Assembly: GCA_964553755.1 (NCBI GenBank)
Contig: CAZKLM010000002.1
Coordinates: 5,021 to 69,020 of the forward strand
DNA: 64,000 nt
DNA from: an uncultured Acholeplasmataceae bacterium
GTDB taxonomy: Bacteria > Bacillota_I > Bacilli_A > Acholeplasmatales > Acholeplasmataceae
Direction of reading: 5' to 3'
Shown here: one piece after another, positions 31,841 to 60,345 of the stretch
Layout of the letters: each line of letters begins with the position of its first letter
Numbering within the stretch: position 1 is the first letter of the stretch
The notes under the pieces: generated by a model
What the model was told of the DNA's origin: nothing
Databases searched by the model: none
The model's input: the letters and a program-made list of their open reading frames with translations, nothing else
Position numbers and translations under genes: made by a program

Positions 31841-32632
31841 ATGAACATTATTGTATGCATCAAGCAAGTCCCGGCATCTTCGGATGTCAATGTCGATCCG
31901 AAAACCGGCGTTTTAATCCGCGATGGGGATAACGTGAAAATGAATCCCTATGATCTTTATGCGTTAGAACGAGCATTCGATATAAAGAAAAACCAATCCA
32001 ATGCTGTCATTCATGCCGTCACCATGGGACCTCCAAGTGCCATCAGCGTTCTAAAAGAAGCGCTTTATATGGGAGCAGATAAAGCAACCTTGATTTCAGA
32101 TAAACGCTTGGCGGGTGCCGATGTGTATTCTACAGCTTACACACTTAGTCAGTTGATTCGTTATCTAGGAGACTATTCCATAATCCTTTGTGGCAAGCAA
32201 ACCACAGACGGGGATACAGCGCAAGTGGGTCCTGAAATCGCGGAGATGCTTGATATACCCCATGTGTGTTATGTCAAAGAAATCATCAAAATCGATGAAA
32301 AATCGATTATAGCAGTGGCTTCCTATGACCATTATGATGAAAAGGTATGGATTTCTCTTCCCTGTCTTTTAACCATTGACCATGGAAATCTTGTTCCTCG
32401 ATTGCCGTCTTTCCGAAGAAAACGCCTTAAAAAAGATGAGCCCATTGAACACGTATCACTTAAGAACTTAGAAGATCAAGATCCCATGCACTATGGATTA
32501 AATGGTTCTCCAACACAAGTCATTGAAATCTTTCCTCCCTCCAAAAACCGCGAGTCAACCCTCTTAGAGGGATCGGGTAAACAGCTAAGCGAAGCGCTGT
32601 TTGATGTTCTAAAACAGCACAAATTTTGGTGA
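31841..32632 (+). CDS. etfB: Electron transfer flavoprotein subunit beta
   Basis: IIVCIKQVP, MNPYD, TMGPP, GKQTTDGDTAQVGP, GLNGSPTQV. Confidence 0.95.
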   Translation: MNIIVCIKQVPASSDVNVDPKTGVLIRDGDNVKMNPYDLYALERAFDIKKNQSNAVIHAVTMGPPSAISVLKEALYMGADKATLISDKRLAGADVYSTAYTLSQLIRYLGDYSIILCGKQTTDGDTAQVGPEIAEMLDIPHVCYVKEIIKIDEKSIIAVASYDHYDEKVWISLPCLLTIDHGNLVPRLPSFRRKRLKKDEPIEHVSLKNLEDQDPMHYGLNGSPTQVIEIFPPSKNRESTLLEGSGKQLSEALFDVLKQHKFW

Positions 32633-32636
32633 TCCT

Positions 32637-33836
32637 ATGAGTTACATTAAAATCAATCAAGACAAAGTAAATCCCAAAATTGCGAAAGATTTGCTGCAAT
32701 TATGCCCCTTTAACGCGTTTGATTATCAAGATGCGTATCTTTCCATAAACGCCTCATGCAAACTGTGTAAACTGTGCATTAATCAAGGACCTGAAGGCGT
32801 TTGTGAATGGATAGAGTCCAAGCAAAAAACCATTGATAAATCGCTTTATAAAGGCATATGCGTTTATATAGAGCATCACAACAATGTGATCCATCCTGTT
32901 AGCTTTGAACTGATAGGAAAGGCCTTAGAACTCAAGCAAGTGACCCAAGAACCGGTCATGGCTATTGTCATTGGATGCGTTGAATCTAAATTGATTGACA
33001 CCTTGAGAACCTATGGATTAGATGCTATTTATATCTATCAGCACGAAGCCCTAAGGACCTTTGATGTGGAGCAGCATACCCGTGTCATGGAGATGTTTCA
33101 TCAAACATTTTTAAACAACATTTTCTTAATGGGAGGAACTGCCCTTGGACGAAGCTTTGCACCACGGGTTGCTGCGAGGTTACATACAGGGTTGACAGCG
33201 GACTGCACCAAACTTGAACTAACAAAAGAAGGCGATCTCATTCAGATTCGTCCAGCTTTTGGTGGCAATATCATGGCTAAAATTGCAACTCCTCATCATC
33301 GTCCACAAATGGCGACTATTCGGTATAAAATGTTCCAAACCGCGACTAAAACAAAAGCGTTGAGTCCAGTCATCTATCCTCACCTTTCTGACATTGAAAA
33401 GGAAAGTCGTGTTCAAATCCTTGACATCATTGAGCAACCTCCAGTCCATGATATCAGTGACGCCGAAATCATAATTGCCGTAGGCAGAGCCTTTAAAAAG
33501 CAAAAGGATTTGGAATTGATTGAACCCCTAAAGAACAAACTCAATGCAGAATTAGCCTGCACAAGACCATTGATTGAAAACGGTTGGTTTGATCCAAAAA
33601 GACAAATCGGTTTATCCGGAAGAACCGTAAAACCTAAATTGATTATTAATATTGGCATTAGTGGCGCAGTGCAATACATCGAAGGGATGAAGGATGCTGA
33701 ACTCATCATTTCCATCAATAAAGATCCCCATTGCCGATTATTCGATATCAGTCACTATGCGATTGTGGGAGATTTTTATGACATCATGCCAGATTTAAAT
33801 AAGCTTATTGATCAAATCAAGGAGGACATGCGATGA
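32637..33836 (+). CDS. etfA: Electron transfer flavoprotein subunit alpha with N-terminal Fe-S (ferredoxin-like) domain
   Basis: CPFNA...CKLCKLC N-terminus; TGLTADCT, RPAFGGNIMA, QIGLSGRTVKPK, GISGAVQ. Confidence 0.93.
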   Translation: MSYIKINQDKVNPKIAKDLLQLCPFNAFDYQDAYLSINASCKLCKLCINQGPEGVCEWIESKQKTIDKSLYKGICVYIEHHNNVIHPVSFELIGKALELKQVTQEPVMAIVIGCVESKLIDTLRTYGLDAIYIYQHEALRTFDVEQHTRVMEMFHQTFLNNIFLMGGTALGRSFAPRVAARLHTGLTADCTKLELTKEGDLIQIRPAFGGNIMAKIATPHHRPQMATIRYKMFQTATKTKALSPVIYPHLSDIEKESRVQILDIIEQPPVHDISDAEIIIAVGRAFKKQKDLELIEPLKNKLNAELACTRPLIENGWFDPKRQIGLSGRTVKPKLIINIGISGAVQYIEGMKDAELIISINKDPHCRLFDISHYAIVGDFYDIMPDLNKLIDQIKEDMR

Positions 33837-35233
33837 AATCGTATCAGTTTGACCCCAATCATTACCAAAAATTGCTCCAAATCGTGGGTCCAGATCACAT
33901 CGTTATCCATGATGATATCCCGATGGATTTGACACATGACGAGTTAAAAACCGTTTCTGCCAAACCGGATTATCATGTATCTGTCACGACAAAAGAACAG
34001 GTAGAAGCCATCATGGTGTTTGCCAATCAAAACCGTATTCCAGTCACCACAAGAGGCAGTGGCACAGGATTGGTTGGAGGTTGCGTTCCTATCCAAGGGG
34101 GCATCTTATTGGATTTATCCCAAATGAACCGGATACTTGAGTTGGATCCAATCAATTTGACGCTTCGTGTTGAACCAGGCGTCTTGCTGCTAGATATCTA
34201 TGAATACGTTGAAAAACAAGGTCTTTTTTATGCACCTGATCCAGGCGAAAAAACAGCGACCATAGCGGGCAACATTTCCACCAATGCCGGAGGCATGCGT
34301 GCGGTTAAATATGGGGTCACGCGTGATTGGGTCCGTGGGCTTGAAGTGGTGATTCCAACTGGGGAACGTCTTGTTTTAGGCGGGAAGGTGGTCAAAAATT
34401 CGACCGGTTTTGCACTAAAAGATTTAATAATTGGAAGCGAAGGCACACTTGGAGTCATCGTTGAAGCGACATTAAAACTGATGGCCAAACCTCAAAAAAC
34501 CATGAGTCTATTGGTGCCATTTGAAACCCACAAAAAAGCCATTGATGCTGCACCTTACCTTTTAACGCATCACGTAGTGCCATCTGCGATTGAGTTTTTC
34601 AATCAAGAGTCACTCACGTATGGGGAAGCATTTTTAGGAAAGAAAATCCCCAATCATCATCATGAAGCGTATCTCTTGCTCAGCTATGATGGAAACAGCG
34701 ACACCCATCTTATGGAAGATATTGAAAAAGCAAGCGCATTATGTTTAGATGAACTTGGTGCTTTAGATGTTTATTTGGTTGACACCGAAGAGCGGAAAAA
34801 ATCGGTTTGGACCGTGCGAGGTGCTTTTCTAGAAGCCATTAAATCGTCGACAACCGAGATGGACGAATGCGACGTGGTCTTGCCCAGATCAATGATTGCT
34901 TCCTATTTGGATTTTGTTCAAGCACTCAGTCAAGAAATCGGCATCCGAATCCCTTATTTTGGGCATATCGGTGATGGGAATTTACACCTTTATCTATGCA
35001 AAGATGCCCTTGATGATGAAACTTGGCAAGATAAAAAAACCATTGCTTTTGACCATATGTATCAAAAAGCAAATGCGTGTGGAGGTCTTGTTTCTGGAGA
35101 GCACGGCATTGGTTACGCGAAAAAAAGATACATGAAGGCGCAGCTTGGCGATAAGCAAATAGACATCATGCGTGCAATCAAGAAAGCGTTTGATCCAAAC
35201 GGGATTTTAAACCCTGAAAAGATTATCGATTAA
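33833..35233 (+). CDS. FAD-linked oxidase (GlcD/LctD-like), probable Etf-coupled (D-)lactate dehydrogenase
   Basis: RGSGTGLVGG, PDPGEKTATIAGN, GSEGTLG, FGHIGDGNLH, SGEHGIG; follows etfB-etfA as in Acetobacterium lctBCD. Confidence 0.8.
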   Translation: MKSYQFDPNHYQKLLQIVGPDHIVIHDDIPMDLTHDELKTVSAKPDYHVSVTTKEQVEAIMVFANQNRIPVTTRGSGTGLVGGCVPIQGGILLDLSQMNRILELDPINLTLRVEPGVLLLDIYEYVEKQGLFYAPDPGEKTATIAGNISTNAGGMRAVKYGVTRDWVRGLEVVIPTGERLVLGGKVVKNSTGFALKDLIIGSEGTLGVIVEATLKLMAKPQKTMSLLVPFETHKKAIDAAPYLLTHHVVPSAIEFFNQESLTYGEAFLGKKIPNHHHEAYLLLSYDGNSDTHLMEDIEKASALCLDELGALDVYLVDTEERKKSVWTVRGAFLEAIKSSTTEMDECDVVLPRSMIASYLDFVQALSQEIGIRIPYFGHIGDGNLHLYLCKDALDDETWQDKKTIAFDHMYQKANACGGLVSGEHGIGYAKKRYMKAQLGDKQIDIMRAIKKAFDPNGILNPEKIID

Positions 35234-35337
35234 TCGTTTTTTCATTCTTTCGATTGCTTTGCATGCAAAACCACATTTATTTGAAAAAAATGATATAATA
35301 TGAGTAACCCATATTCGACCATAAAGAGGTGACTCAT

Positions 35338-36183
35338 ATGAGTGTCATGTTGAACATGCTGAAGTACAAAGAAGAATTAAGTATGGCTGAGCGTGTTGTT
35401 TTGGATTATCTGATTGAAAACAAAGAATCCCTCAAAGATTTCAGTGTAGAAAAGATTGCTGAAGCGGCATACACATCCCCCGCTTCTGTGGTTCGAATGT
35501 GTAAAAAACTGGGTTATCGGGGGTTTAAAGATTTTAAGATTGACTTTATTTTAGCTAATGCGAAAGTAGAAATTCCTGAAAACAAAGAGTATGTCGATGT
35601 CATCTTAGCCAAAGATAAAAACTGCGGCCGTTCCGCAATTGAAAACAACATTAGAGTGCTTGAAGACACTTTAAAACTTTACAACCAAGAAACCCTTGAA
35701 AAAGCAGCAGAAGTCATCATGACGGCTCGAAAGATTCTCATTTTTGGAAAAGGATCATCCTATTTGGTCTGCAAAGATTTAGAAATGAAACTGAGACGGA
35801 TCAATAAGTTTTGTATCGCTCAAGGAGAATCCCATGAACAGCTCGTGGATGCTTCATTTTTGAATCAAAAAGACGTGATTATTTTCATCTCCAATTCTGG
35901 AAAAACCAAGGAAATCATCAGTGCTGCGTTAGTCGCTAAAGAAAATAAAGCCACGATTATCAGCATCACCAAACTTGGCAGTTCTATTTTGTCAGAACTT
36001 TCAGACATCGTACTCTACACGTCATCGATGGAAGGCGAATTTCGAAGTGCAGCCATGACCTCGCGAATTTCACAATTGGCGATTGTGGATGCATTGTTTG
36101 CATCCTGTGCCTATTTTGATATCGATCGCTCGGTTAGAACCTTAGAGATGACGTATCAAACCTTTAAAAAATACAAGCGATAA
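35338..36183 (+). CDS. RpiR/MurR family transcriptional regulator (HTH + SIS)
   Basis: SPASVVRMCKKLGYRGFKDFK, FGKGSS, ISNSGKT, SRISQL; extended -10 TGATATAAT at 35291-35299. Confidence 0.93.
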   Translation: MSVMLNMLKYKEELSMAERVVLDYLIENKESLKDFSVEKIAEAAYTSPASVVRMCKKLGYRGFKDFKIDFILANAKVEIPENKEYVDVILAKDKNCGRSAIENNIRVLEDTLKLYNQETLEKAAEVIMTARKILIFGKGSSYLVCKDLEMKLRRINKFCIAQGESHEQLVDASFLNQKDVIIFISNSGKTKEIISAALVAKENKATIISITKLGSSILSELSDIVLYTSSMEGEFRSAAMTSRISQLAIVDALFASCAYFDIDRSVRTLEMTYQTFKKYKR

Positions 36184-36229: not shown

Positions 36230-36266
36230 GACAAACGTTTGCATCTCATCATAGATGAATTATAAT
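36230..36266 (+). promoter_or_regulatory. anmK operon promoter with LacI/cre-like palindrome over the -35
   Basis: TTGCAT-N16-TATAAT; palindrome CAAACGTTTG at 36232-36241. Confidence 0.6.
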
Positions 36267-36284
36267 AAAAGTGTAGGTGACGAC

Positions 36285-37433
36285 ATGAAACGATTAGGCA
36301 TTGGAATCATGAGTGGAACCTCTTTGGATGGCATAGATGTTGCACTGGCCAGCATTGAAGGTTACCATGAAGGAACCCGCGTGACGCTCCATCACTTTAA
36401 CACATATCCTCTATCCGATTCACTCATTAATCGCATCAGACAGGCAATGGAACCAAAAACCAGTTCGGTGGATCTCCTTTGCAGTCTGAATTTTGAGTTG
36501 GGCTATGCCTTTGCTGAAGCTGTTCAAAAGCTCTGTCAAGAGGCTCGTTTGCCGCTTTCACACCTTGATTTTGTGGCCTCACACGGCCAAACGATGTATC
36601 ACATGCCCAATGAACCCCTTCCATGCCATCGCTCCACCCTTCAATTAGGGGAAGGTTCTGTCATCAAAGAAATGCTTCAAACAACCGTTATCAGCAATTT
36701 TAGAACAGCTGACATGGCCGTTGGTGGACAAGGAGCACCCCTGGTTCCATTTGCAGATTATGTTTTGTTTAAATCGGATACCAAGACCCGTGTGGTGCAC
36801 AACATTGGGGGCATATCCAACCTAACCTGGTTAAAAAAAGGTGGCCTACCTGAAGACGTGATGGCGTTTGATACCGGTCCAGGCAACATGATGATCAACG
36901 ATGCCATTTTTAGATTGTTGGGCTTGCCCTATGACGATCAAGGCATACACGCATCATTAGGGACACCGATTAAACCCATGCTTGAAGCGCTTCTTTCCCA
37001 TCCTTTTTTGTCTCAGACACCACCGAAATCAACGGGAAGAGAAACGTTTGGCAGTCCGTGGACGCATAAACTGCTGAAACAATATTCCGATTACGCAATC
37101 AATGATCTTTTAGCAACCTTCACGGCTTACACCGCAATTTCAATAGCGGATGCCTATGAACGCTACATTTTCCCCTTAGGACCTCTTGATGAAATCATCT
37201 TTTCAGGCGGAGGCATTCATAATACGTTTTTGATGAATTCCATTAAAGCACGATTGCATCCTATTCCCATCCGAACCATGGAAGATTATGGGATGAACAG
37301 CGACGCTAAAGAAGCCTTAGCCTTTCTCATTTTAGGCCATCACACCTTAGGACATGTTACCAATCATCTTCCTAGCACAACGGGAGCGTCTAGGCCCGTT
37401 ATCCTTGGACAAATCCACCCTGTGTTGAAATGA
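36285..37433 (+). CDS. anmK: Anhydro-N-acetylmuramic acid kinase
   Basis: GIMSGTSLDGID, SHGQT, GGQGAPLVP, NIGGISN, FDTGPGN, PPKSTGRE, GGG, KEALAF. Confidence 0.95.
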   Translation: MKRLGIGIMSGTSLDGIDVALASIEGYHEGTRVTLHHFNTYPLSDSLINRIRQAMEPKTSSVDLLCSLNFELGYAFAEAVQKLCQEARLPLSHLDFVASHGQTMYHMPNEPLPCHRSTLQLGEGSVIKEMLQTTVISNFRTADMAVGGQGAPLVPFADYVLFKSDTKTRVVHNIGGISNLTWLKKGGLPEDVMAFDTGPGNMMINDAIFRLLGLPYDDQGIHASLGTPIKPMLEALLSHPFLSQTPPKSTGRETFGSPWTHKLLKQYSDYAINDLLATFTAYTAISIADAYERYIFPLGPLDEIIFSGGGIHNTFLMNSIKARLHPIPIRTMEDYGMNSDAKEALAFLILGHHTLGHVTNHLPSTTGASRPVILGQIHPVLK

Positions 37434-37443
37434 GGATTAACCC

Positions 37444-38424
37444 ATGAAAACAGTTTTAGCATACGATTGTGGCGGTACAAAAACACATGTTGCTCTCTTT
37501 GATTTGGAAGGACGATGGCTTTTTGATGTTGTCCTTGAAGGATCTAATCATCAATCGTCGAACATGGATCACTACCAAAGTGTCATTCAGCGTGGATTAG
37601 AAGCAGTTTTAACGGAAACCCAGTATCCCCTTGAATCCATCGAAAGGGTATTTTTAGGGGTTTCAGGAGCGGATTTGCCAAGCGATTTTATGCTTCTTAA
37701 TGACGCAACCGCTTTGGTGTTTCAATCGATTCCATTCGAGATTGTTAACGATGCATGGATCATCTTTAGAAGCGGTGTTCAATACCCCTATGGGGCTGTT
37801 GCTATCTGCGGAACTGGCATGAACGCGGCTGCAATGGATCAACATCAAAATCAAGCCATTTTAAGATCATTAGGGTTCACGTTAGGAACTTATGGAGGAG
37901 GGCTTGACATCGCTAGGGAAGCCATGCATTACGCCTTTCGGGCGGATGAGTTGTCGTATCATGACACAATGCTCAGGCATGAAATTCCTCGACACTTCAA
38001 CGTAGCCTCGATGAATGAGGTTGTGGATCTCTTTTATCCGACCATGAAGGTGAACCGTCATCAGATGGGAGCAATCACTGGATTAGTTAATCATTTGGCC
38101 AATCAAAACGATAAGGTTTGTAAGGAAATTTTAAACCGTGTTGGCGCTGCCATAGGGATGCAAACGTTAGGCGTTATTCGACAACTTTCCATGCAAAACG
38201 AACGTTTTCCTTGTGTCTATGGTGGCCGTGTCTTTGATGGAGAATCCCCTCTTTTATTAAAAGCTTTTAAGCGTATTATACGAAAAGAATGCCCCCATGT
38301 CTTTTTTGTCAAACCTAAAATCCCACCCGTAGCGGGTGCGTATTTGTTTGCATTAGACCGAATGGGGATTAAACAAACCGATCACATGTTCCAACATCTT
38401 GTCCATGGGAGAAATGGCATATGA
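37444..38424 (+). CDS. BadF/BadG/BcrA/BcrD-family amino sugar kinase (GlcNAc/MurNAc kinase, MurK-like)
   Basis: YDCGGTKT, GVSGAD, IVNDA, ICGTG.N, LG..GGG, GG.VF, PVAGA. Confidence 0.82.
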   Translation: MKTVLAYDCGGTKTHVALFDLEGRWLFDVVLEGSNHQSSNMDHYQSVIQRGLEAVLTETQYPLESIERVFLGVSGADLPSDFMLLNDATALVFQSIPFEIVNDAWIIFRSGVQYPYGAVAICGTGMNAAAMDQHQNQAILRSLGFTLGTYGGGLDIAREAMHYAFRADELSYHDTMLRHEIPRHFNVASMNEVVDLFYPTMKVNRHQMGAITGLVNHLANQNDKVCKEILNRVGAAIGMQTLGVIRQLSMQNERFPCVYGGRVFDGESPLLLKAFKRIIRKECPHVFFVKPKIPPVAGAYLFALDRMGIKQTDHMFQHLVHGRNGI

Positions 38425-39755
38425 AAAAAAAGTTAAAGATTGTCACAATAGGGGGTGGATCTTCGTATACCCCTGAGTTGATTGAAGGGTTCATCAAACG
38501 ACACCATGAACTGCCCGTATCTGAAATCTGGTTGGTGGATATTGACCAAGGCTATGAAAAACTGATGATTGTTGGAAAATTGGCCCAACGCATGGTGAAA
38601 GAAGCCGGTTTAGACATCCAGATCCATTTGACATTAAACCGAAAAGAAGCGCTTTTTAACGCTGATTTTGTCACCACACAATTTCGGGTTGGTTTACTTG
38701 ATGCCCGAATTTTGGATGAAAAGATACCGTATGCGTTTGGCATGATTGGACAAGAAACCAATGGGGCTGGCGGTGTTTTTAAAGCGCTTAGAACAGTTCC
38801 CATCATATATGAGCTTATTGATGAAATGAAAGAGTTATGTCCCCATGCATGGTTACTCAACTTCACAAACCCAGCAGGGATTGTGAGCGAGGCGGTCTTT
38901 CGGTATGCCGATTTTGATCGGTATATTGGTGTTTGCAATGTGCCGATTAACATGACCCATCATTTCGCCAAATTGCTGAATCTCCAACCCAAAGACATCG
39001 TGCCTTACTTTGCAGGACTCAATCATCTTTCTTATGTTTTGCATGTTTTTTACCAAAAGAAAGATCTCATTAAAGAGATTTTCCAAAAGATGCGCCATGA
39101 GCAGTCCTCCATGAACAACATAGATCCTTTGGTATGGGATATGACCTTTGTTGAAGAACTCGGTGTGATTCCATCCCCTTATCACAAGTACTTTTACCGC
39201 TATGAGGAAATGTATCACAAGTATAAACAGCAGATTGAGTCAGGTGAAACCCGTGCAGAAACCGTCAAGAAGTTGGAAAGCAAACTATTTGAACAGTATA
39301 AAGACCCCCAACTAAAGGTGAAACCTAAAGAACTTGAATCGCGTGGAGGAGCGCTTTATAGCGATGTGGCATGCAGCATCATCAGTTCGATAGTCAACGA
39401 TAAAAGAGATTATCAAGTGGTCATTACACAAAACAATGGGCATATCACAGATTTACCCGATGGGTGTGCCATCGAAATCACCACGCGGATGACCAAACAC
39501 GGTCCTGTTGCGGTCCATATCGGTCAATTACCGGTTCAAATTCGAGGGTTAATCCAACAGATGAAAGCCTTTGAGGAACTCTTAGCGGATGCCATTTTCG
39601 AGAAAAGTCTGGCGAAAGCCAAGCTCGCCCTACAAATCCATCCTCTCACGCATTCGGTTCAACAAGCCGGGGAGTTGTTTGATCGATTGGTCGAAGCCCA
39701 TCGCCCCTATTTAAACTATTATTATGAGGAAAAAGATGAAACGTTACCGGTATAA
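38421..39755 (+). CDS. GH4 6-phospho-beta-glucosidase (ChbF/LicH/CelF-like)
   Basis: KIVTIGGGSSYTPELIEG, QFRVG, GQETNGAGG, NFTNPAG, GVCNVP, AGLNH, RGGA.YS. Confidence 0.92.
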   Translation: MKKKLKIVTIGGGSSYTPELIEGFIKRHHELPVSEIWLVDIDQGYEKLMIVGKLAQRMVKEAGLDIQIHLTLNRKEALFNADFVTTQFRVGLLDARILDEKIPYAFGMIGQETNGAGGVFKALRTVPIIYELIDEMKELCPHAWLLNFTNPAGIVSEAVFRYADFDRYIGVCNVPINMTHHFAKLLNLQPKDIVPYFAGLNHLSYVLHVFYQKKDLIKEIFQKMRHEQSSMNNIDPLVWDMTFVEELGVIPSPYHKYFYRYEEMYHKYKQQIESGETRAETVKKLESKLFEQYKDPQLKVKPKELESRGGALYSDVACSIISSIVNDKRDYQVVITQNNGHITDLPDGCAIEITTRMTKHGPVAVHIGQLPVQIRGLIQQMKAFEELLADAIFEKSLAKAKLALQIHPLTHSVQQAGELFDRLVEAHRPYLNYYYEEKDETLPV

Positions 39756-40953
39756 AGACCCCAGCCAACCCATTTATCATTACCACACCACACGCATCGT
39801 GGAAATCCCAGAACACACGGTTCCTAAACCGTTTTTGGCCATGTGGGTTTCCAACGTGCTGAATATCGATTTGCCCAGTTTGAAGGATTTAGATGCTTAT
39901 CAAAAGCGAGTCCAGGACATGATTCAAACCGCCTTAGATTTTCAATTAACCGCTCTATTCTTTCAAGTCAGAACCACCAATGACGCCTTTTACGCTTCGA
40001 AACTTAACCCTTATAGCCGTTACTTGGTTGAAAAAGAAGGGAATATCCCTCCTTTTGATGTGCTCAGATGGGTGATTCAACGGGTCCATGAAGCCGGTCT
40101 TGAGTTTCATGCATGGTGCAATCCTTACCGAGTATCCATGGCCAGTGGTCCTAAAGGTTACGCGTATTTAGAGACATGCGATGACTTGAATTTCGCCAAA
40201 AAATATCCCGAACATACCCTCATGGATCTCAATGGTCAGTTAATCTTGAATCCGTCTCATGAGGCTTCTAAGAAGCATATCATCGATTCCATGCTCGAAA
40301 TTGTGCGAGATTACCCGGTCGATGGCATTCATTTTGATGACTATTTTTATCCTTATGCAGGGCTGGATCCAACACACGATGATGCGAAAGACTATGAAAA
40401 CCGATTCGACCGTTCCCAAAGTTTAGGCGATTTTAGAAGGCATCATGTCAATGATCTCATTAAGCGACTAAGCGAGGCATTTCAACAGGAAAGACCCATC
40501 CGATTCGGGATTAGTCCCTTTGGCATTTATAAAAACAAAGTAGGCGATTCCATCGGTTCTAACACGGATATCAAATGCAGCCAAAGCTACGATAACCAGT
40601 ACGCTGATGCGCTCGTGTGGGTCGAACAAGGGTGGATCGATTACATTGTTCCACAAATCTATTGGGATTTGGGGCATCCGATTGCTCCTTTCGCGGATGT
40701 CTGTGATTTTTGGGCTGACCTTTGTAGCCGCTCTCATGTCGATTTATACATTGGTCACGCAGCCTATCGCTTGGGCCAAGAAGGCGAATACGAGAATCCC
40801 GAAGAAATCAATGATCAAATTCGATACGCAGCCCAGTATCCTTCGGTAAAAGGGCATGTGTTTTTCACCTTTAAAAGTTTGTTTGATGATCCTGTTTGTC
40901 AAACTGGAGTGAAACGACTAAACGCATTTATCAAAGGAGAGACGAGGACATGA
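39736..40953 (+). CDS. GHL10 (YddW/DigH-like) glycoside hydrolase, no signal peptide
   Basis: AMWVSNV.NIDLP, FFQVR, EFHAWCNPYR, DGIHFDDYFYPY, FGISPFG, DYIVPQIYW. Confidence 0.88.
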   Translation: MKRYRYKDPSQPIYHYHTTRIVEIPEHTVPKPFLAMWVSNVLNIDLPSLKDLDAYQKRVQDMIQTALDFQLTALFFQVRTTNDAFYASKLNPYSRYLVEKEGNIPPFDVLRWVIQRVHEAGLEFHAWCNPYRVSMASGPKGYAYLETCDDLNFAKKYPEHTLMDLNGQLILNPSHEASKKHIIDSMLEIVRDYPVDGIHFDDYFYPYAGLDPTHDDAKDYENRFDRSQSLGDFRRHHVNDLIKRLSEAFQQERPIRFGISPFGIYKNKVGDSIGSNTDIKCSQSYDNQYADALVWVEQGWIDYIVPQIYWDLGHPIAPFADVCDFWADLCSRSHVDLYIGHAAYRLGQEGEYENPEEINDQIRYAAQYPSVKGHVFFTFKSLFDDPVCQTGVKRLNAFIKGETRT

Positions 40954-43900
40954 AATTAATCAAAATCACCCTGTTTACCTTTTGGATGGGACTCCTTTTA
41001 TGGTTAAGCATTCAACTTCTTTTTGCTCAAACGTCGATGGTCGCATTGACTCGAAATGGTCAGCCTGTTTACCACTTTAACACCAGCCAGCCCGTTATGA
41101 TTCCCGAACATATCCAAGAGAAGAATCAAGAGTTTAGGGCCGTTTGGGTAGCTACCGTGTTCAATTTGAACATGCCTCAACACACCAGCGAGTCTCAATA
41201 TAAAGCGGCGTTTGCTTCGTTGATAGCCGATGTGAAAGAAAAAAATATGAACGCCATCTTTTTTCAAGTTAGACCGATGAACGATGCATTTTATGCATCG
41301 GACCTAGCCCCTTTTTCCCGTTATCTGACTGGTGTTGAAGGTCAAGATCCCGGTTGGGATGTCATGGCTTATATGGTGGATTATGCCAAAAGTCAAGGCG
41401 TTGAGTTTCACGCTTGGCTTAATCCGTATCGAGTAGGGACATCCGCTTTAGAAAAATCGGCCTTTATCAACACGTTATCAACGGCTAATTTTGGGCGGAA
41501 AAACCCAGAACTTGTGGTGCAAGGAACCATCAGTAATGGCCAATACCCCTACATATTAAACCCTGGCGAGCCTGAAGTGAAAACCTACATTCGTTCGGTT
41601 GTTGTTGAATTGATGGAACGCTACAATGTCGATGGCATCCATTTTGATGACTACTTTTATCCTTATTCAGGAATTTCATCCGATCAATTGACGTATCAAA
41701 CCTATGCCCCAGTGGGCATGAACATTTCCGACTGGCGTAGAGAAAACATAAATGACGTGATTCGGGGCGTCAAAGAAGACGTGGATGCCCACAATCTTAC
41801 ACAGGCTAAAGATGTCCGATTTGGGGTTAGTCCATTTGGCATTTGGCGTTCAGGAGGAACAGAGGGGTCGAACACCTCCACCTCTGCCCTTCAAAGTTTC
41901 ACCACGCAGTTTGCTGATTCAAGAAAATGGGTTCAAGAAGGCTGGGTGCATTACATCTGCCCTCAAGTCTATTGGAACTTCGGTCATGCATTAGCCCCTT
42001 ACGCGGATGTTGTTGATTGGTGGGCAAGTGTCACCAGAGGTACTGGTGTCGATCTGATCATTGGCCATTCTCCTTATCACGCATCCATCAATAATTGGTT
42101 AAACGATGAACTGGTGATGCAACTTAAATACAACCAAAAGCATCCCGAGATCAAAGGATCTTCCATGTATTCGTTTGCCTACATAGAGCACGTTCATTTA
42201 AACGAGGTTCGTTCCCAATCATGGACACAGGTGCCCATGAGCACATGGGAGAGTAGCCAAATTGCGATGCCCACTATCAACTTAACAGGAACTTTTGATT
42301 CGGGGAAATATCGAAGCAATGTTACCGTTACGCTTTCGTCATCGTATGATGTTTTTTATAAAATCAACGAAGGAAACTGGATCCCTTATCTCGAACCATT
42401 TGTGATTGACACACAAGGCATAACAGCTATCTATGCCAAAGCAGTAACCCAAACAGAGGAAAGCCTTATTGCGAGCACAACGCTTCATATTGAAAAAGTG
42501 AACATGGTCGTCCCTCAAATCGTCTTAAACGGTGATCAAATTGGCGGGGATTATGTAGCAGGCACAGAATTGGTGCTTCTCGCGTCTGAACCCATTTTTT
42601 ATGCCATCAACCATGGATCTATTGGAAGTTGGCAACCCTATATTGGCCCCATTCCTTTGACTGGGCTTGGCAACCACTTCATTCAAGCTAAAACCATTAA
42701 CAGCGAAGGAATCGAATCATCGATGATCACACGATTGGTTAAAATAGTGCCTGCATGTTATCCCGAGCCGACATTGACACTCGAAGGAGAAGGAAACCCA
42801 CCTTATTATCAAAACGCCACCCTTCATTTAACGGGATCCACGGCGATGTCATATCGGATAAATGGCGGTTCATGGATTCCTTATGAATCGCCTATCGAAT
42901 TTGACCAAGACGGCCATTATCTTTTTGAGTACCGAAACGAAGATGCTTGTCAAACCGTTTACCAAGAAAGCTTCGAGATTATTCAAGCGATTGGTGATCC
43001 AATTATTGAAATTGAAGGAACGTCTGATGGATGGTATTTTACCGAAGTGACTACGGTCACGTTGATACCTGCTGATCCTTTAGATACCCTGTATTACCGA
43101 ATTCATAACGGATCCAGTTGGACGCCGTGGCTGATTTACCAAGAACCGCTTGTTTTTGAGGTGAATGCGACGTACACGCTTGAGTTTTATGCGAAAGATC
43201 GGGCCTTAAACCAAACAGAAACGTTCGAACAACGGATTCGCTTGAACATTCCACCTTCTGACGATAATCAGTGGATTTACCGAGACGGACAAATTGTTCG
43301 CTACTATCAATCCAATGTACCTGTTGAGTTGCCAATTCACTACCATGAAAAAGATCAGGAAATTCGCGCGATTTGGGTGGCTACTGTCTTTAACATCGAT
43401 TTAGCACCCTACGTGAATGAAGCGGATTATAAGAGCCGGATTATTCTGATGCTTGATCGCATCAAAGCGCTACATTTTAACACCATTTTCTTTCAAGTTC
43501 GATCCATGAACGATGCTTTTTACCCATCCTCTTATGCCCCTATTTCTCGGTTTTTGACCGGTATTGAAGGAGGAGACCCCGGTTGGGATGTGCTTGAGTT
43601 CATCATTCAAGAAGCGCATGCAAGAGGTTTGGAACTGCATGCTTGGCTTAACCCGTATCGCGTGACCGCCTCAAGCACACTATCTAAAGAGGAGCAACTC
43701 AGTTTATTGCACGAAACGAACTTTGCTAGGCAAAATCCGTCCTTAGTCATGGTGGATAACAATGGGGCTTTGATTTTGAACCCAGGCGAACCTCAAGTTA
43801 GAGCCTATTTGAAAAACGTGATTGAAGAATTAATGATGAATTACGCGATTGATGGTATTCATTTTGACGATTATTTTTACAGTTACAGCGGGATGAGCAC

Positions 43901-44795
43901 CACACAAGATGCACACACCTACAATCGAACCAAGCAAGCCCTTCAATCGTTGGCGGATTGGAGACGAGACAATGTGAACACATTGGTTCGAGACGTGTTC
44001 CATTTGGTGGAACATTACAATCAATCCCAACAACGCTTCATGAAGTTTGGCATCAGCCCCTTTGGCATTTGGAAATCAGGAGGACCAGATGGATCAAATA
44101 CATCTACCTCGACGTTATCCTCTTATTCTGCTCAGTTTGCCGATTCCAAGAAGTGGGTTGAAGAAGGATGGTTACATTATATTATTCCGCAACTTTATTG
44201 GGAATTTTCTCATCGTTTAGCGCCTTTTGCTGATTTGGTTGATTGGTGGGTGGATGTCACGAAAGACACATCGGTTAAATTGATTATTGGCCAAGGGTTT
44301 TATCGGTATGCGGATGGTTCTTGGAAAGATGCCGATGAAATCATTGAGCAGTTAAGATACATATCTCAATATCCGTCCATTTATGGAAGTTCGTTTTTCT
44401 CTTATCGGACATTAAACAGTTCCCATGCACTCGTGGTACAAGCGTTAGCGCGCATCCAAGAGAGCTATTGGACCCAAACGGTCGACTTTGCTTGGGAAAC
44501 CTCTGTCGTCCCTCCTGTTCCTCATGAGTGTTTACCAGGTGAAACGTTTCAAGATGGCGTGTGTGTTCCCATTCCACCACAATGCCATGATGATGAACTG
44601 TTGGTAGATGGCGTGTGTGTTCCCAAAGAACCGGTTTGTGGAACCAACGAAACGTTTCAAGATGGCGTTTGTGTACCAGAAAAAGAAGAACCGTTGGATG
44701 AACGAGGTTTACTTTATGTTATTTTAGGCGTTGGTGCAACCCTGGTTTTAGGCATGGCGTTTATTGTCATTAGAAAGTTGAGATTCCGCGTGTGA
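40950..44795 (+). CDS. Membrane-anchored surface enzyme with two GHL10 (DigH-like) domains separated by Ig-like repeats
   Basis: Signal peptide; two copies of RA.WVATVFN / FFQVR.MNDAFY / HAWLNPYR / DGIHFDDYFY / FG.SPFGIW / PQ.YW; Y.IN.G.W..Y linker repeats; Cys repeats; C-terminal TM plus basic tail. Confidence 0.9.
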   Translation: MKLIKITLFTFWMGLLLWLSIQLLFAQTSMVALTRNGQPVYHFNTSQPVMIPEHIQEKNQEFRAVWVATVFNLNMPQHTSESQYKAAFASLIADVKEKNMNAIFFQVRPMNDAFYASDLAPFSRYLTGVEGQDPGWDVMAYMVDYAKSQGVEFHAWLNPYRVGTSALEKSAFINTLSTANFGRKNPELVVQGTISNGQYPYILNPGEPEVKTYIRSVVVELMERYNVDGIHFDDYFYPYSGISSDQLTYQTYAPVGMNISDWRRENINDVIRGVKEDVDAHNLTQAKDVRFGVSPFGIWRSGGTEGSNTSTSALQSFTTQFADSRKWVQEGWVHYICPQVYWNFGHALAPYADVVDWWASVTRGTGVDLIIGHSPYHASINNWLNDELVMQLKYNQKHPEIKGSSMYSFAYIEHVHLNEVRSQSWTQVPMSTWESSQIAMPTINLTGTFDSGKYRSNVTVTLSSSYDVFYKINEGNWIPYLEPFVIDTQGITAIYAKAVTQTEESLIASTTLHIEKVNMVVPQIVLNGDQIGGDYVAGTELVLLASEPIFYAINHGSIGSWQPYIGPIPLTGLGNHFIQAKTINSEGIESSMITRLVKIVPACYPEPTLTLEGEGNPPYYQNATLHLTGSTAMSYRINGGSWIPYESPIEFDQDGHYLFEYRNEDACQTVYQESFEIIQAIGDPIIEIEGTSDGWYFTEVTTVTLIPADPLDTLYYRIHNGSSWTPWLIYQEPLVFEVNATYTLEFYAKDRALNQTETFEQRIRLNIPPSDDNQWIYRDGQIVRYYQSNVPVELPIHYHEKDQEIRAIWVATVFNIDLAPYVNEADYKSRIILMLDRIKALHFNTIFFQVRSMNDAFYPSSYAPISRFLTGIEGGDPGWDVLEFIIQEAHARGLELHAWLNPYRVTASSTLSKEEQLSLLHETNFARQNPSLVMVDNNGALILNPGEPQVRAYLKNVIEELMMNYAIDGIHFDDYFYSYSGMSTTQDAHTYNRTKQALQSLADWRRDNVNTLVRDVFHLVEHYNQSQQRFMKFGISPFGIWKSGGPDGSNTSTSTLSSYSAQFADSKKWVEEGWLHYIIPQLYWEFSHRLAPFADLVDWWVDVTKDTSVKLIIGQGFYRYADGSWKDADEIIEQLRYISQYPSIYGSSFFSYRTLNSSHALVVQALARIQESYWTQTVDFAWETSVVPPVPHECLPGETFQDGVCVPIPPQCHDDELLVDGVCVPKEPVCGTNETFQDGVCVPEKEEPLDERGLLYVILGVGATLVLGMAFIVIRKLRFRV
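44529..44678 (+). repeat. Three in-frame 54-bp tandem repeats encoding C-x3-E-x3-DGVCVP
   Basis: Units start at 44529, 44583, 44637; shared core GATGGCGT(G/T)TGTGT(T/A)CC. Confidence 0.9.
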
Positions 44796-45844
44796 AATCA
44801 GCGATTTTGGATCAGTTGATGTCTTTAGTTAACCAGGGCATCATCCCTGGAGGGTCGTACGCAATTATTGATCGCAATCAGGGGATTGACATCGAAACCT
44901 TTGGATTTTTCCAATTAAAGCCAACGCCAGTCGCTAACCGAACAGATGTCATTTATGACGTGGCCTCATTGACTAAGACGGTTTCTACCACCACCTTGAT
45001 CATGATGTTAGTGGAAAAGAAGATGATTCAATTGGATACCCCCATCTATTCTTTTTTGCCTTTTAAGATGGACCCCTCAATATCCTTCTTTGATTGTCTA
45101 ACCCACAGTTCCGGTTTAGCGGCAGACCTACCCAAAGCCTTTACCCTTCAAAACAAAGAAGACGTCATCAAAAGGATCATTGAGCAAAAGCCTATCTATT
45201 CGAAAGGAACTCACATTGTCTATTCAGATATTGGATTTATTTTACTTGGCCTCGCGATTGAAACGCTCTTAAACATGCCGTTAGATGAGGCAGCGGATCA
45301 GTGGATTTTTAAACCACTCGGGATGAACGATACAGGCTATCATCCTGAAACGTCGCGGACCGCACCAACGGAGTTTAGAAATGACCCCGTGTTTCAAGGG
45401 GTGTTACAAGGCCGTGTTCACGATGAAAAGGCGTTTGCTATGGGTGGGGTTGCCGGACATGCAGGGGTGTTTTCGACCGCCCATGATTTAGCGGTGTTTG
45501 CTAAACACCTTTTAGATGGGACGTTTCCGCTTCATTCTGAAAGCCTTGATATGCTTTTTTCGACCGCCCTCGAAAGACCGGATTTAAAAGGGACGATGTT
45601 AAAGCGAGGAATCGGCTGGGATAAACCCACTGGGCGCTCTTCAGCCGGGCAGTTTGCGGACCCTGAAGCGACCATTTTACACACAGGTTTCACAGGATGT
45701 AACATGTTTATTGACCGTAAACATGGACTTGGATTTGTTCTTTTAACCAACGATGTCCATCCATCACGCGATCAAAAAGGGGTGATGGAGATTAGACACG
45801 AACTGGCCAATATCGTGTATCGCGAAAGGAGAAACATCAGATGA
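44792..45844 (+). CDS. Beta-lactamase-fold serine hydrolase, AmiE-like (probable muropeptide amidase/esterase), cytoplasmic
   Basis: ASLTK (SxxK), LTHSSG, YSDIGF, GRVHDEKA, GVAGHAG, HTGFTG; no signal peptide; GTG start overlapping upstream stop. Confidence 0.8.
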   Translation: MKSAILDQLMSLVNQGIIPGGSYAIIDRNQGIDIETFGFFQLKPTPVANRTDVIYDVASLTKTVSTTTLIMMLVEKKMIQLDTPIYSFLPFKMDPSISFFDCLTHSSGLAADLPKAFTLQNKEDVIKRIIEQKPIYSKGTHIVYSDIGFILLGLAIETLLNMPLDEAADQWIFKPLGMNDTGYHPETSRTAPTEFRNDPVFQGVLQGRVHDEKAFAMGGVAGHAGVFSTAHDLAVFAKHLLDGTFPLHSESLDMLFSTALERPDLKGTMLKRGIGWDKPTGRSSAGQFADPEATILHTGFTGCNMFIDRKHGLGFVLLTNDVHPSRDQKGVMEIRHELANIVYRERRNIR

Positions 45845-48800
45845 AATGGATCAAATTACTTGGGGTTATCGGCATCTTGATGCTGATCATGGGGTGTTCC
45901 AAACCGAGCATCCAGTTAAATGACGACCCGCTTATTATCAAGGTGGGCGATAAACATGCGATTGAGTTTTTAGAAGGGACATCCCCTGATGTGGTAATCA
46001 CATCCTCCAATCCTTTGTTAGCAGCCATCACAGAAGATGGACGCATTGAAGCGTTGATGGAAGGAGAGGTGATCATTCGAGTGGCTTTAAAAAGCCATCC
46101 AGATGTGTATCGTGAAATACCCGTCACCATCCGAAAGAAGATCACCCTAACGCTTGAAGAGACGCAGGTTCAACTCATTGAAAATACCGTTAAAACCGTC
46201 ACCGCATCAAGCAACGATAGCGTGACATTTACGAGTTCAGATCCGATGATTTTTGTGGTTGATTCTCTCGGTAAGATTGAAGGTAAATCACCTGGGATAG
46301 CCACATTAACCGTTCGTTCGGTCTATGATCCAGATGTGTTTATAACCATCACCGTTGAGGTATTAAAATACGTCTACATTCATCTTCAAGAGACCGATTT
46401 GATGCTTTTAATGGACGAGCGTCATCGATTAAACCCCGATAGCAGCGATGATCTTTTATTTGAATCATCGAATCCGTTGATTGCTTCCGTGGATGCAGAA
46501 GGATGGATTAGGGGTGTATCCATTGGAGAAGCAATCATTACCATGACGTCAAAAAGTGATGCGAGTATTTTTAAATCCATAAGAGTTTCTGTCTTTACTC
46601 AACCCAGCACGATTCAAATACTAGGGTTTACCCGTATGAATAGACAAACGGACCAGCAACTATCTCTTGATGTTAATCCTTATTTAGGGTTTCCATTGGT
46701 TTTTTGGCAATCAAGCGACGCATCTCTGTTATCGATTGATGAAACAGGAAAAGTAACCGCTTATCAAACCGGCGTGGTGACGATTACCGCGACATCAAAG
46801 GTTAACTCGAGCGTTACCGCATCATGGACCATCGAAATTGTCGATCAAATGATGGTATCCGATCATTTTATCAATCAAAACCAGTGGGTAGATGAAGCAG
46901 GCATCCTCTATCTAAAAGATGTGCATGGATTCACAAATTTGACCGATGCATTATCCAAAGCTCGCCCATACACCCATCTTTTCCTTCTTGGAGGAGAACA
47001 CCAAGACGATGTCGTCTTGGATAAAAAGGGATTGATTCTAACGGGCTCCTTGGCTACCATCAGCGGGATTTGGACGCTTGCAGCGGATGATGTTCGTATC
47101 AGCGATTTAAGTTTCACAAACGGGGCTCAAATCAAGAATGATCAGGCGATTCAAGGGTTTGTTTTTAACTCCAATCAGGTTTTTGAGATCCGTCATGAAG
47201 ACCCCTTTATCCATTTGATAAATGTCAAATCTGTTGTCATTAGCCATAACACATTTCATGATTTAGAAGGCGATGGGATTCAGATTAAAGACTATAGAGG
47301 CGGTGACATTGTTATCCATCGAAATACAATGAGTGAGCTTAAAACCGCTATTTCGATTGTAAGCCTTGGAAAGTACGATGCGACAACAACCCTTAAAGTG
47401 ACACGAAATGTCATCGATATGGTTGATACCGCTCTTGAGATAACCAACGACCACTCTGAAGTTACGGAATCCATACTGGCGTACGCACGGTTTAATGCGA
47501 TAAAGAATTATCAGATTGCAGCCCAATCGAATGCAAACAGCAACGTTGATTTCACCTTGAATTATTGGGGAACACCAATCCCTGATAGCGACCGTTTCAT
47601 CGAAATAAACCAAGCGAGCTATAGAGGGTACTATCAAAGCGAAGCTGCCATTATCAGTGAAGCTCTGTACAATCCTGATTTACCACTCTTCATTGAAATC
47701 CAAAACACAGTCTCTGAAATCAACATTGGTGATACACACACCTTTTCTGTTTCCTTTCTTCCGATGGAAGTTCAAACCGACCGGTTACGCTGGATTACAT
47801 CGAACCCATCGGTTCTGATGGTAAGCCAAAATGGAACCATCGAACCACTAAAAAGTGGAGTGGCGGTCATCACGGTTCGTCTGACCCAAAATTCCAGCAT
47901 CCAAACCACCATCACCGTGAAGGTTTTAACCGATCCCGGTATTGAGTTATCCTTTAGTAAACAGGAAAACCACATTGAAGTTGGCGATGCACTAACGCTA
48001 ATCGCAACCCCATTTCCTTACAGCATAGCCAATCAAGCCGTTTTCTTTGAATCAAGCCATCCTTCGATTGCATCGATTACACAAGATGGCCTAATTGTCA
48101 CCCATCAAGCGGGGTTAGTCACATTCAAGGTTTCACTGATTGAAGACCCAGCTGTTTTCAACACCTTTACTATTGAAGTTTTTGACCAACTAGACCCTAA
48201 TAATCTCTTGGATCTTTTGACCATGTATTCGCTTACTTACGCCAAATACATGGAGTGGCAGCAATATGGAGTGAGTTTTGATTATATCGAAAAACGATAC
48301 GAGAGTGTCTCGCGTTATCACTTCGGAGATCTAAACATCAACACCTCAAAATTGTTACCGGTTTTCTTTGCTATTCGACCCGGCGAACCGATGGATCCTC
48401 ATCCAGCAGGCATTACCGCTTTTAACCCATACAACGTTTATTGGGTCGTTATGCATGAAACAGCAGGAACCAATCCTGGTGCAGGTGCATTATCACACGC
48501 GAATTATTTATGGAATGCCACCATCAATCAAAACCAATTGTTTGTTTCATGGCACTTCACCGTGGATCATAAAGAAATTTATCAACATTTACCCGAAACC
48601 GAACGTGGGTTCCATGCGGGAGATGGATCCACAAGACCAGGGACAAGCAACACCTATTTAGGTGGGGGTAACCGAAATGGAATCGGCATTGAAATGTCCG
48701 TTGCTCATGATGAAGACATGATGACCACTTTGCATCGATCCTCTAAACTAGCAGCCGATTTGCTTGTCCGCTATCAGTTGCCTTTATCCCATATGAAGTA

Positions 48801-49083
48801 CCATCAAGATTTTTCAGGCAAGACATGTCCCCAAGGGCTCATTCGTGCGAACATGTTACCTTACCTTGAAAAATTAGCTGAGATTGAATATTTAATTCGC
48901 AAAAATCATTCGGATGCTGCAATCTCATTTGAGTCTCACAATGCCTCATTTTTGGACCAAAATGGACGAATCATCGACTTTCCATCGCGAGCATTGACAG
49001 TCAGTTACACGATTACTGTGACAGAAGACGGTGTGACACAGTCAAGAACCCTTTATACCTATCTTCCCGGAACGGATGTTTAA
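45841..49083 (+). CDS. Large lipoprotein: Big_2 Ig-like repeats + beta-helix + C-terminal Amidase_2 N-acetylmuramoyl-L-alanine amidase
   Basis: LIMGC lipobox; repeated SS(N/D)P.(I/L)A.(V/I)...G.I....G units; amidase motifs VVMHETAG, SWHFTVD, HAGDG, GIGIEM, HQDFSGKTCP. Confidence 0.87.
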   Translation: MKWIKLLGVIGILMLIMGCSKPSIQLNDDPLIIKVGDKHAIEFLEGTSPDVVITSSNPLLAAITEDGRIEALMEGEVIIRVALKSHPDVYREIPVTIRKKITLTLEETQVQLIENTVKTVTASSNDSVTFTSSDPMIFVVDSLGKIEGKSPGIATLTVRSVYDPDVFITITVEVLKYVYIHLQETDLMLLMDERHRLNPDSSDDLLFESSNPLIASVDAEGWIRGVSIGEAIITMTSKSDASIFKSIRVSVFTQPSTIQILGFTRMNRQTDQQLSLDVNPYLGFPLVFWQSSDASLLSIDETGKVTAYQTGVVTITATSKVNSSVTASWTIEIVDQMMVSDHFINQNQWVDEAGILYLKDVHGFTNLTDALSKARPYTHLFLLGGEHQDDVVLDKKGLILTGSLATISGIWTLAADDVRISDLSFTNGAQIKNDQAIQGFVFNSNQVFEIRHEDPFIHLINVKSVVISHNTFHDLEGDGIQIKDYRGGDIVIHRNTMSELKTAISIVSLGKYDATTTLKVTRNVIDMVDTALEITNDHSEVTESILAYARFNAIKNYQIAAQSNANSNVDFTLNYWGTPIPDSDRFIEINQASYRGYYQSEAAIISEALYNPDLPLFIEIQNTVSEINIGDTHTFSVSFLPMEVQTDRLRWITSNPSVLMVSQNGTIEPLKSGVAVITVRLTQNSSIQTTITVKVLTDPGIELSFSKQENHIEVGDALTLIATPFPYSIANQAVFFESSHPSIASITQDGLIVTHQAGLVTFKVSLIEDPAVFNTFTIEVFDQLDPNNLLDLLTMYSLTYAKYMEWQQYGVSFDYIEKRYESVSRYHFGDLNINTSKLLPVFFAIRPGEPMDPHPAGITAFNPYNVYWVVMHETAGTNPGAGALSHANYLWNATINQNQLFVSWHFTVDHKEIYQHLPETERGFHAGDGSTRPGTSNTYLGGGNRNGIGIEMSVAHDEDMMTTLHRSSKLAADLLVRYQLPLSHMKYHQDFSGKTCPQGLIRANMLPYLEKLAEIEYLIRKNHSDAAISFESHNASFLDQNGRIIDFPSRALTVSYTITVTEDGVTQSRTLYTYLPGTDV

Positions 49084-53444: not shown

Positions 53445-53456
53445 TTAAGCCGATAA

Positions 53457-53476
53457 CCCCCTCATTTTTGAGGGGG
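53457..53476 (+). other. Stem-loop without U-tract after SBP gene (probable mRNA-stabilising element)
   Basis: CCCCCTCA-tttt-TGAGGGGG followed by ACCG, not a T run. Confidence 0.6.
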
Positions 53477-53499
53477 ACCGTTGTTCAAAAGGAGTCAAT

Positions 53500-56415: not shown

Positions 56416-56425
56416 GAGACGATGC

Positions 56426-57361: not shown

Positions 57362-57362
57362 C

Positions 57363-58235: not shown

Positions 58236-58244
58236 GAGGCAAGT

Positions 58245-60333: not shown

Positions 60334-60345
60334 GAGGGACAAGCC

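Follow-up and report, generated by a model that had tools for sequence, protein, structure and literature searches.

How does an enzyme that splits 6-phosphorylated disaccharides obtain its substrate where no phosphotransferase system (PTS) is at hand? The question is raised by a window of 64,000 nucleotides (assembly GCA_964553755.1, contig CAZKLM010000002.1, positions 5,021 to 69,020 of the forward strand; G000:C2:5021-69020 in our numbering) from the genome of an uncultured Acholeplasmataceae bacterium (G000; 1.57 Mb, 99.4% complete), in which the gene of a BadF-type sugar kinase, here termed kinA, overlaps that of a GH4 6-phospho-beta-glucosidase. A preliminary description of the window had proposed that the kinase phosphorylates an imported wall disaccharide, either GlcNAc-MurNAc or MurNAc-GlcNAc (GlcNAc stands for N-acetylglucosamine and MurNAc for N-acetylmuramic acid), and that the GH4 enzyme cleaves it, independently of both PTS and NagZ. 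An ATP-dependent kinase feeding the GH4 and a wall origin of the sugar are indeed likely, whereas the two N-acetylated substrates are not. With moderate confidence we propose instead that KinA phosphorylates imported glucosaminyl-MurNAc (GlcN-MurNAc) or its anhydro form (GlcN-anhMurNAc), both derived from N-deacetylated peptidoglycan, and that GH4 releases glucosamine-6-phosphate (GlcN-6P). The pair is likely to form a PTS-free, two-step side branch of a peptidoglycan-scavenging operon, beside NagZ and NamZ.

Coupling of the kinase and the GH4 enzyme

KinA (37444..38424, + strand, 326 amino acids), a predicted glycoside 6'-kinase of the BadF/ASKHA fold, matches the Pfam family BcrAD_BadFG with an E value of 1e-17, and the adjoining gene (38421..39755, + strand, 444 amino acids; Glyco_hydro_4, E 6e-65; 4C, E 8e-54) encodes a GH4 6-phospho-beta-glycosidase of the ChbF/LicH type, the only GH4 in the genome. 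Open reading frames, domains and PDB matches agree with the preliminary description on both identities and on the 4-base ATGA overlap at 38421-38424. Since 4-base overlaps also occur at four other junctions within the same gene run, this one signifies tight operon packing and no more.

The best PDB matches of the GH4 protein are the 6-phospho-beta-glucosidases 5c3m and 1s6y (E ~1e-148). Its NAD-binding motif GGGS is kept, as are nine of the nine residues of the -1 subsite (R96, E112, T113, N150, C172, N173, H202, Y254 and R278); the counterparts in E. coli ChbF, which excerpts of PMC13197890 assign to the metal, catalytic and phosphate sites, are R96, E112, T113, N150, C172, N173, H203, Y258 and R282. 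Overall identity to ChbF is 45% and the -1 subsite is identical. By its domains, the GGGS motif and the subsite residues, the enzyme is thus placed among the 6-phospho-beta-glycosidases of the ChbF/LicH/BglT subgroup, and NAD+/Mn2+-dependent cleavage is predicted. KinA carries the motif D8-x-G-G-T, D77 and the catalytic D103, with D8, G10, G11, T14 and D103 invariant among 25 aligned homologues, and its structure model (predicted local distance difference test score of 93.6) superimposes on C. acetobutylicum MurK (8zo3) with a template modelling score of 0.85 at 25% identity. Phosphate loop DxGGT, catalytic Asp and the modelled hexokinase fold together indicate a BadF-type ASKHA sugar kinase.

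The two genes travel together. A sample of 200 relatives drawn from the order contains 8 with a strong kinase orthologue, and in 8/8 GH4 is adjacent. Metagenomes yielded 69 loci, of which we counted the 52 with a kinase of at least 38% identity (35 clusters at 90%): GH4 adjoins the kinase orthologue in 49, the remaining 3 stop at the kinase, and 43 of the 52 hold other genes of the wall-sugar operon. No GH4 was seen in the 17 weaker loci outside this count (kinase 22-28%). A single-protein scan of genome contigs returned one locus, and a sample of the Spirochaete class 2/151. In a genome of the same genus (G024) the operon is intact except that the kinase is deleted, and its GH4 is devoid of GGGS, R96, E112/T113, R278 and the RGG loop while N150, C172 and H202 are retained. 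The G024 GH4 gene (L155:11668-12834) is an open frame of 388 amino acids with in-frame deletions, in keeping with either decay or a new role. In a further genome, G155, both kinase and GH4 are missing from the cluster. These losses, single cases each, are as expected if the kinase is the sole supplier of the GH4 substrate, and they mark the pair as an accessory branch. Functional coupling of KinA and GH4 is thus well supported by comparison of genomes.

The proposed independence from a PTS holds beyond the window. Our scan of the window agrees with the preliminary description in that PTS, GH3 and MupG are lacking from it and the adjacent uptake system is of the ATP-binding cassette (ABC) type; moreover, PTS_EIIC, Lac-type IIA and Man-type IID domains are all missing from the 99.4% complete genome. 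A tblastn search of G000 with 21 proteins of annotated loci gave no match for PTS enzyme II (EII), MupG, GH1, GH8 or YdjC, a solute-binding protein and GHL10 being the sole matches. G000 does carry PTS enzyme I and three HPr-family genes, which are possibly regulatory remnants. They lie at G000:C15:15395-17357, C6:65284-65917 and C10:30637-30933 with no enzyme IIC alongside, and an open reading frame of 119 amino acids that by eye looks like EIIB adjoins one HPr gene. Among 21 pair-bearing genomes, PTS_EIIC above cut-off is absent from 13 and present, in any type, in 8. Because G000 has no EIIC, Lac-type IIA or Man-type IID, and because kinase and GH4 genes are both linked and jointly lost, the phosphorylated substrate most likely comes from the ATP-dependent kinase and not from a PTS.

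A kinase that serves a glycosidase has to accept a glycoside rather than a free sugar. Excerpts of PMC10465942 describe D141 of T. forsythia MurK as contacting the C1 hydroxyl; the corresponding residue in KinA, matched by residue spacing and numbers and not by superposition, is T149. Asp occurs at this anomeric position in 0 of 120 close KinA homologues, and KinB, the second BadF kinase of the gene run, retains it. KinA thereby departs from the motif GGxG..G-D-x-G-S, with its anomeric Asp, of the MurK/NagK monosaccharide kinases. Since the Asp that binds a free C1 hydroxyl is lost, KinA would accept a glycoside and looks like a glycoside kinase. In quick trees with Shimodaira-Hasegawa-like approximate likelihood ratio (SH-aLRT) support only, the second computed minus two long-branch rows, KinA clusters with GH4-adjacent kinases and with the Haliovirga kinase at SH-aLRT 97-98; KinB, in contrast to KinA, clusters with murQ-linked kinases of Priestia and Clostridium. 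The nearest solved structure was rejected as a discriminator between KinA and KinB, C. acetobutylicum MurK being about equally far from both. Published criteria that speak against MurNAc binding (Asn preceding the catalytic Asp; Asp at position I69) were left unused because they hold for C. acetobutylicum MurK as well. An ATP kinase that feeds a phospho-beta-glucosidase may have precedents, as leads only, in Klebsiella BglK and in the TM1280/BglT pair of Thermotoga.

It is very improbable that the two proteins are uncoupled, KinA acting on a monosaccharide such as free glucosamine and GH4 on another substrate or on none. Monosaccharide kinases make up all of the closest solved structures, and NamZ, if it acted on MurNAc-GlcN, would release glucosamine in need of a kinase; however, there is no EII to feed a GH4 whose site is intact, kinase and GH4 are lost jointly, the GH4 phosphate site has decayed where the kinase is deleted, and KinA lacks the anomeric-OH Asp.

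Candidate disaccharides

No PBP transpeptidase domain was found in G000, and a query recognised as MurG-like had no match there. Orders of the Acholeplasmatales/Izemoplasma type are described as wall-less in excerpts of PMC10868615, and judged by its genes the source bacterium looks devoid of a cell wall; the gene run would therefore serve scavenging and not recycling. The claim that the pair bypasses NagZ did not survive inspection of the whole contig, as nagZ and namZ continue the same operon past the window end; the apparent absence of nagZ arose because the operon is cut by the window end. The genome-wide search thus bore out the lack of PTS EII and of MupG (GH170), and at the same time brought nagZ to light.

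Which disaccharide is left for the pair? According to excerpts of PMC7676230, GH4 enzymes oxidise the C3 hydroxyl of the glycon. In MurNAc-GlcNAc this position is blocked by the lactyl ether of MurNAc, and on this mechanistic ground we rejected the disaccharide as a GH4 substrate; moreover, NamZ is encoded in the operon. GlcNAc-6P-MurNAc is a poor candidate, since ChbF of E. coli requires GlcN6P-GlcNAc and is inactive on GlcNAc6P-GlcNAc (Walter 2021, as reported in excerpts of PMC13197890, PMC12791066 and PMC9402603). In B. subtilis, NagZ cuts GlcNAc-MurNAc and NamZ cuts MurNAc-GlcNAc (PMC8054146, excerpts). That KinA nevertheless acts on N-acetylated GlcNAc-MurNAc, with GH4 cutting it directly or after deacetylation by NagA, or else on MurNAc-GlcNAc, is quite improbable: the wall-operon context and the presence of nagA speak for it, but NagZ and NamZ of the same operon would already cut both disaccharides, ChbF is inactive on GlcNAc6P glycosides and C3 oxidation is impossible on MurNAc.

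PIG-L, YdjC (ChbG) and CE4 deacetylases were not found in G000, and hence the glycon should arrive as glucosamine or glucose. The grouping of KinA with the Haliovirga kinase, whose locus carries ChbG, nagB and GH8, favours an amino-sugar glycon. Wall glucosamine is de-N-acetylated in many Gram-positive bacteria. B. subtilis wall that is partly deacetylated yields a disaccharide, read by the authors as likely GlcN-MurNAc, that resists both BsNagZ and BsNamZ (bioRxiv 10.1101/2021.12.02.470905, excerpts). GlcN-MurNAc would thus be the gap that the operon otherwise has beside NagZ and NamZ. In a full-text search of the literature, with most subscription journals outside reach, we found no enzyme that cuts GlcN-MurNAc; nor did we find, with the primary papers on ChbF, CsnEFG and GlmA outside reach, a GH4 acting on it, whether fed by a kinase or by a PTS. 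Given the fixed order anmK-kinA-GH4, the anhydro form is an equally good candidate. A wall-derived disaccharide is the likely substrate: 43 of the 52 metagenome loci hold other wall-sugar genes, GH4 genes of G010, Priestia megaterium and Clostridium butyricum lie in clusters with murQ, anmK and mupG, and MurQ above cut-off accompanies the pair in 19/21 pair-bearing genomes, as against 3/11 others, in a hand-picked set of kin.

In the pathway we propose, surface GHL10 and amidase proteins would free wall disaccharides from other bacteria, and the ABC system would take them up. N-acetylated disaccharides would pass to cytoplasmic NagZ and NamZ, and those whose glucosamine had been de-N-acetylated by the source bacterium to the kinase and GH4. 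In GlcN-MurNAc or GlcN-anhMurNAc, KinA would transfer phosphate to C6 of the glucosamine at the non-reducing end, upon which GH4 would yield GlcN-6P and (anhydro)MurNAc. GlcN-6P could then enter the NagB reaction, while MurNAc would be converted by KinB and MurQ and anhydroMurNAc by AnmK and MurQ.

Several observations weigh against this pathway. On the side of the kinase, the anomeric Asp is retained in the Nonomuraea kinase and in a second clade of GH4-linked kinases, a Streptomyces member of the wider KinA clade has no GH4 neighbour, and the only solved close relative, C. acetobutylicum MurK, is a monosaccharide kinase about equally near to KinA (E 1e-24) and KinB (E 2e-20). On the side of the genes, G051 and G420 have the pair but no murQ, and in several lineages the pair stands alone, outside wall clusters; only 2/9 plasmid GH4 loci that we read lie in wall-sugar clusters, the other 7 being cel/bgl-linked or solitary. 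On the side of the substrate, the -1 subsite is identical in cellobiose-, chitobiose- and wall-linked GH4 enzymes, the wall-linked enzymes are not separated as one clade in the GH4 tree, and GH18 occurs in 20/29 related genomes. Re-acetylation could also provide a parallel route, for which GNAT proteins are candidate GlmA-like glucosaminide re-acetylases by analogy; C. acetobutylicum GlmA reportedly serves such a route for GlcN-ended fragments. GNAT proteins of ~300 amino acids are inserted in related wall-sugar clusters (L147:5554-6453, L163:17810-18760 and L166:17758-18744), and G000 encodes a homologue outside the cluster (C8:37628-38479).

With the -1 subsite shared and the GH4 tree uninformative, the aglycone cannot be named from sequence; the tree was rejected as a substrate predictor on account of the scattered wall-linked enzymes. 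An ATP-dependent beta-glucoside kinase working with a 6-phospho-beta-glucosidase on cellobiose or other beta-glucosides, apart from any wall pathway, is the default annotation of this GH4 subgroup; the GH4-tree neighbours include cel/bgl-linked enzymes, and the persistence of the pair without murQ in G051 and G420 points the same way. Nonetheless we deem it unlikely, for G000 has no GH5, a separate GH3 of 772 amino acids with BglX-type domains is encoded elsewhere in the genome, and the repeated placement of the pair in murQ/anmK clusters would be left unexplained.

Because GH18 is found in 20/29 relatives, chito-oligosaccharides must be taken seriously as alternative substrates of the family, even though G000 lacks GH18. 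The same kinase-then-GH4 chemistry would here act on (GlcN)2 or GlcN-GlcNAc derived from chitosan or chitin, as proposed for Streptomyces CsnK/CsnH, with the pair carried along in an operon for amino sugars; the wall-sugar pathway is compatible with this reading. The csnREFGHK precedent, the location of the nearest annotated KinA relative in a chito-oligosaccharide locus of Haliovirga and a PIG-L deacetylase gene upstream in many relatives argue for it. For G000 we consider it rather unlikely, as GH18, GH46, GH8, CE4, YdjC and PIG-L are all absent and anmK and GHL10 genes flank the pair on either side.

The surrounding gene run

The genes of the run that lie within the window are all on the + strand. 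Close protein homologues bear the names Acholeplasmataceae or Izemoplasma. The run includes a MurR/RpiR-family regulator (35329..36183, domain scan) and, 10 bases 5' of kinA, the anhydro-MurNAc kinase AnmK (36255..37433, above the NCBIfam cut-off). Downstream of GH4 follow a GHL10 glycoside hydrolase whose N-terminus is without signal-like features (39724..40953; domain scan, hydropathy) and a double-GHL10 surface protein with hydrophobic N- and C-termini (40896..44795), likely an extracellular glycan hydrolase and 37-38% identical to GHL10 of the Priestia wall-sugar cluster. Next come a beta-lactamase-fold serine hydrolase, presumably an AmiE-like amidase (44792..45844), a lipoprotein that combines Big_2 repeats with a domain of the Amidase_2 type (MurNAc-L-Ala amidase; 45841..49083) and an Ig-like surface protein (49210..51621). 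A sugar ABC uptake block (51834..63834) comprises two solute-binding proteins, three in-window permeases and NHL, Yip1 and DUF5696 proteins; of a fourth permease only the start is included (63824..64000), the gene run going on past the window end.

Beyond the window (G000:C2:68844-75039) lie genes for a DUF624 protein, NamZ (start at G000:C2:70483), NagZ (C2:71564), the MurK-like BadF kinase KinB (C2:73155) and MurQ (C2:74101), the last four 1.5-6 kb past the window end and in the same gene run. NagZ scores above the NCBIfam beta-N-acetylhexosaminidase cut-off and contains the KHFPGHG motif; by crude hydropathy, the N-termini of NamZ and NagZ are without signal-like features. Gene context, motif and tree suggest that KinB is a MurK. 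With nagZ, namZ, murQ, murR and a predicted MurNAc kinase together, the operon is, as annotated, a NagZ/NamZ/MurQ peptidoglycan catabolic set. Electron transfer flavoprotein (ETF) beta, ETF alpha and a GlcD-type FAD oxidoreductase (31841..35233, + strand) may oxidise the D-lactate released by MurQ; ETF/GlcD-type genes adjoin murQ in other clades. Downstream use of GlcN-6P and GlcNAc-6P would fall to nagB (14368-15114, - strand) and nagA (13237-14364, - strand), both above cut-off. Directly 3' of nagB-nagA, an open reading frame at 11863-13236 resembles by eye a class II cyclobutane pyrimidine dimer photolyase.

Across Acholeplasmatales-like genomes without PBPs, gene order is conserved over a cluster of ~40 kb (window 27298-64000 and G000:C2:68844-75039), which suggests that wall-less bacteria feed on necromass. 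In most relatives the cluster is accompanied by a NAGPA (phosphodiester glycosidase) surface protein (window 30256-31821), which, as a guess, may act on the linkage units of teichoic acids. Upstream lies the gene of a ROK-family protein of 470 amino acids (window 27298-28722), which in many relatives has a PIG-L de-N-acetylase partner (L042:5328-6182); G000 retains the ROK gene without this partner. Scans for promoters and terminators gave chance-level counts (35 versus 37.6 and 21 versus 16.6, respectively). Four metatranscriptome runs from a single sludge study contain short near-identical contigs scattered across the operon at a depth of 2-7; as they are contigs only, with no silent-stretch control, we rejected them as proof of transcription or co-transcription.

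Comparison with known systems

Whether KinA founds a family of ATP-dependent glucosaminide 6'-kinases, and with GH4 constitutes the missing GlcN-MurNAc salvage by which wall-less Acholeplasmatales feed on lysozyme-resistant walls, with Bacillus and Clostridium running the same route with a cellobiose-type PTS replacing the kinase, is in our estimation an even bet. The locus in any case names a two-enzyme candidate for GlcN-MurNAc cleavage, and it suggests that free-living wall-less Acholeplasmatales live off bacterial necromass, modified walls included. If the proposal is true, some 'cellobiose' GH4/PTS genes in murQ clusters would be reassigned, and the long-postulated CsnK-type kinase would gain a testable relative.

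The clusters of Priestia megaterium (L171, NZ_CP041065.1) and Clostridium butyricum (L179, NZ_CP073278.1) combine a Cel-type PTS, GH4, MupG, BadF kinase, AnmK, MurQ and MurR, and their GH4 enzymes share 53% and 49% identity, respectively, with that of G000. Here the PTS stands in for kinase and ABC importer, and the BadF kinase groups with KinB, not with KinA; these clusters probably represent the same route in a PTS form. In genome G010 a distantly related pair (24%/39% identity) lies inside a run of nagZ-kinase-anmK-murQ-etf-dehydrogenase-GH4-kinase-mupG. S. aureus MurP/MupG resembles our proposal in that a C6-phosphorylated wall disaccharide is cut by a 6-phospho-glycosidase, but, as far as excerpted sources describe it, that system relies on a PTS, on the NAD-independent GH170 enzyme MupG and on MurNAc-6P as glycon, and neither PTS EIIC nor MupG exists here. 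With the namZ-nagZ-amiE/murQRP genes of B. subtilis and the MurK-type clusters of C. acetobutylicum, the operon has namZ, nagZ, an AmiE-like hydrolase, murQ, murR and a BadF kinase in common; whereas B. subtilis, according to excerpts, secretes its hydrolases and imports monosaccharides by PTS, the operon here has ABC uptake and the added kinase–GH4 pair.

E. coli chbBCARFG is alike in its GH4, ChbF cutting GlcN-6P glycosides, but depends on a Lac-type PTS for phosphorylation and on ChbG for deacetylation, both absent here. On plasmid pHIC of Haliovirga abyssi (L152:9805-21066), GH4, YdjC/ChbG, a BadF kinase, ABC, nagB and GH8 appear to form a chb-like pathway with ABC importer and kinase in place of the chitobiose PTS. 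The preliminary description had regarded the architecture as unlike any known route, but Streptomyces csnREFGHK is a precedent: excerpts of PMC5635096, PMC6097792, PMC6520443 and bioRxiv 10.1101/2023.09.20.558697 describe an ABC importer, the GH4 CsnH and a putative kinase (CsnK, SCO2662), postulated to act on glucosamine oligomers, the last of these sources terming CsnK a ROK-family kinase. As in csnREFGHK of S. coelicolor and S. lividans, ABC importer, GH4 and sugar kinase are united in one operon here. The csn operon is headed by the ROK repressor CsnR, comes with a chitosanase and is devoted to chitosan oligosaccharides, whereas the present operon has MurR at its head, no GH46 or GH8, and a setting of peptidoglycan catabolism; the likeness is one of gene layout. 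A ROK-GH4-BadF locus of Nonomuraea gives a 26% match. The locus thus resembles csn and chb in its working and is a member of neither; the layout of ABC importer, kinase and GH4 is already known from csn, and here it stands in a wall-sugar operon.

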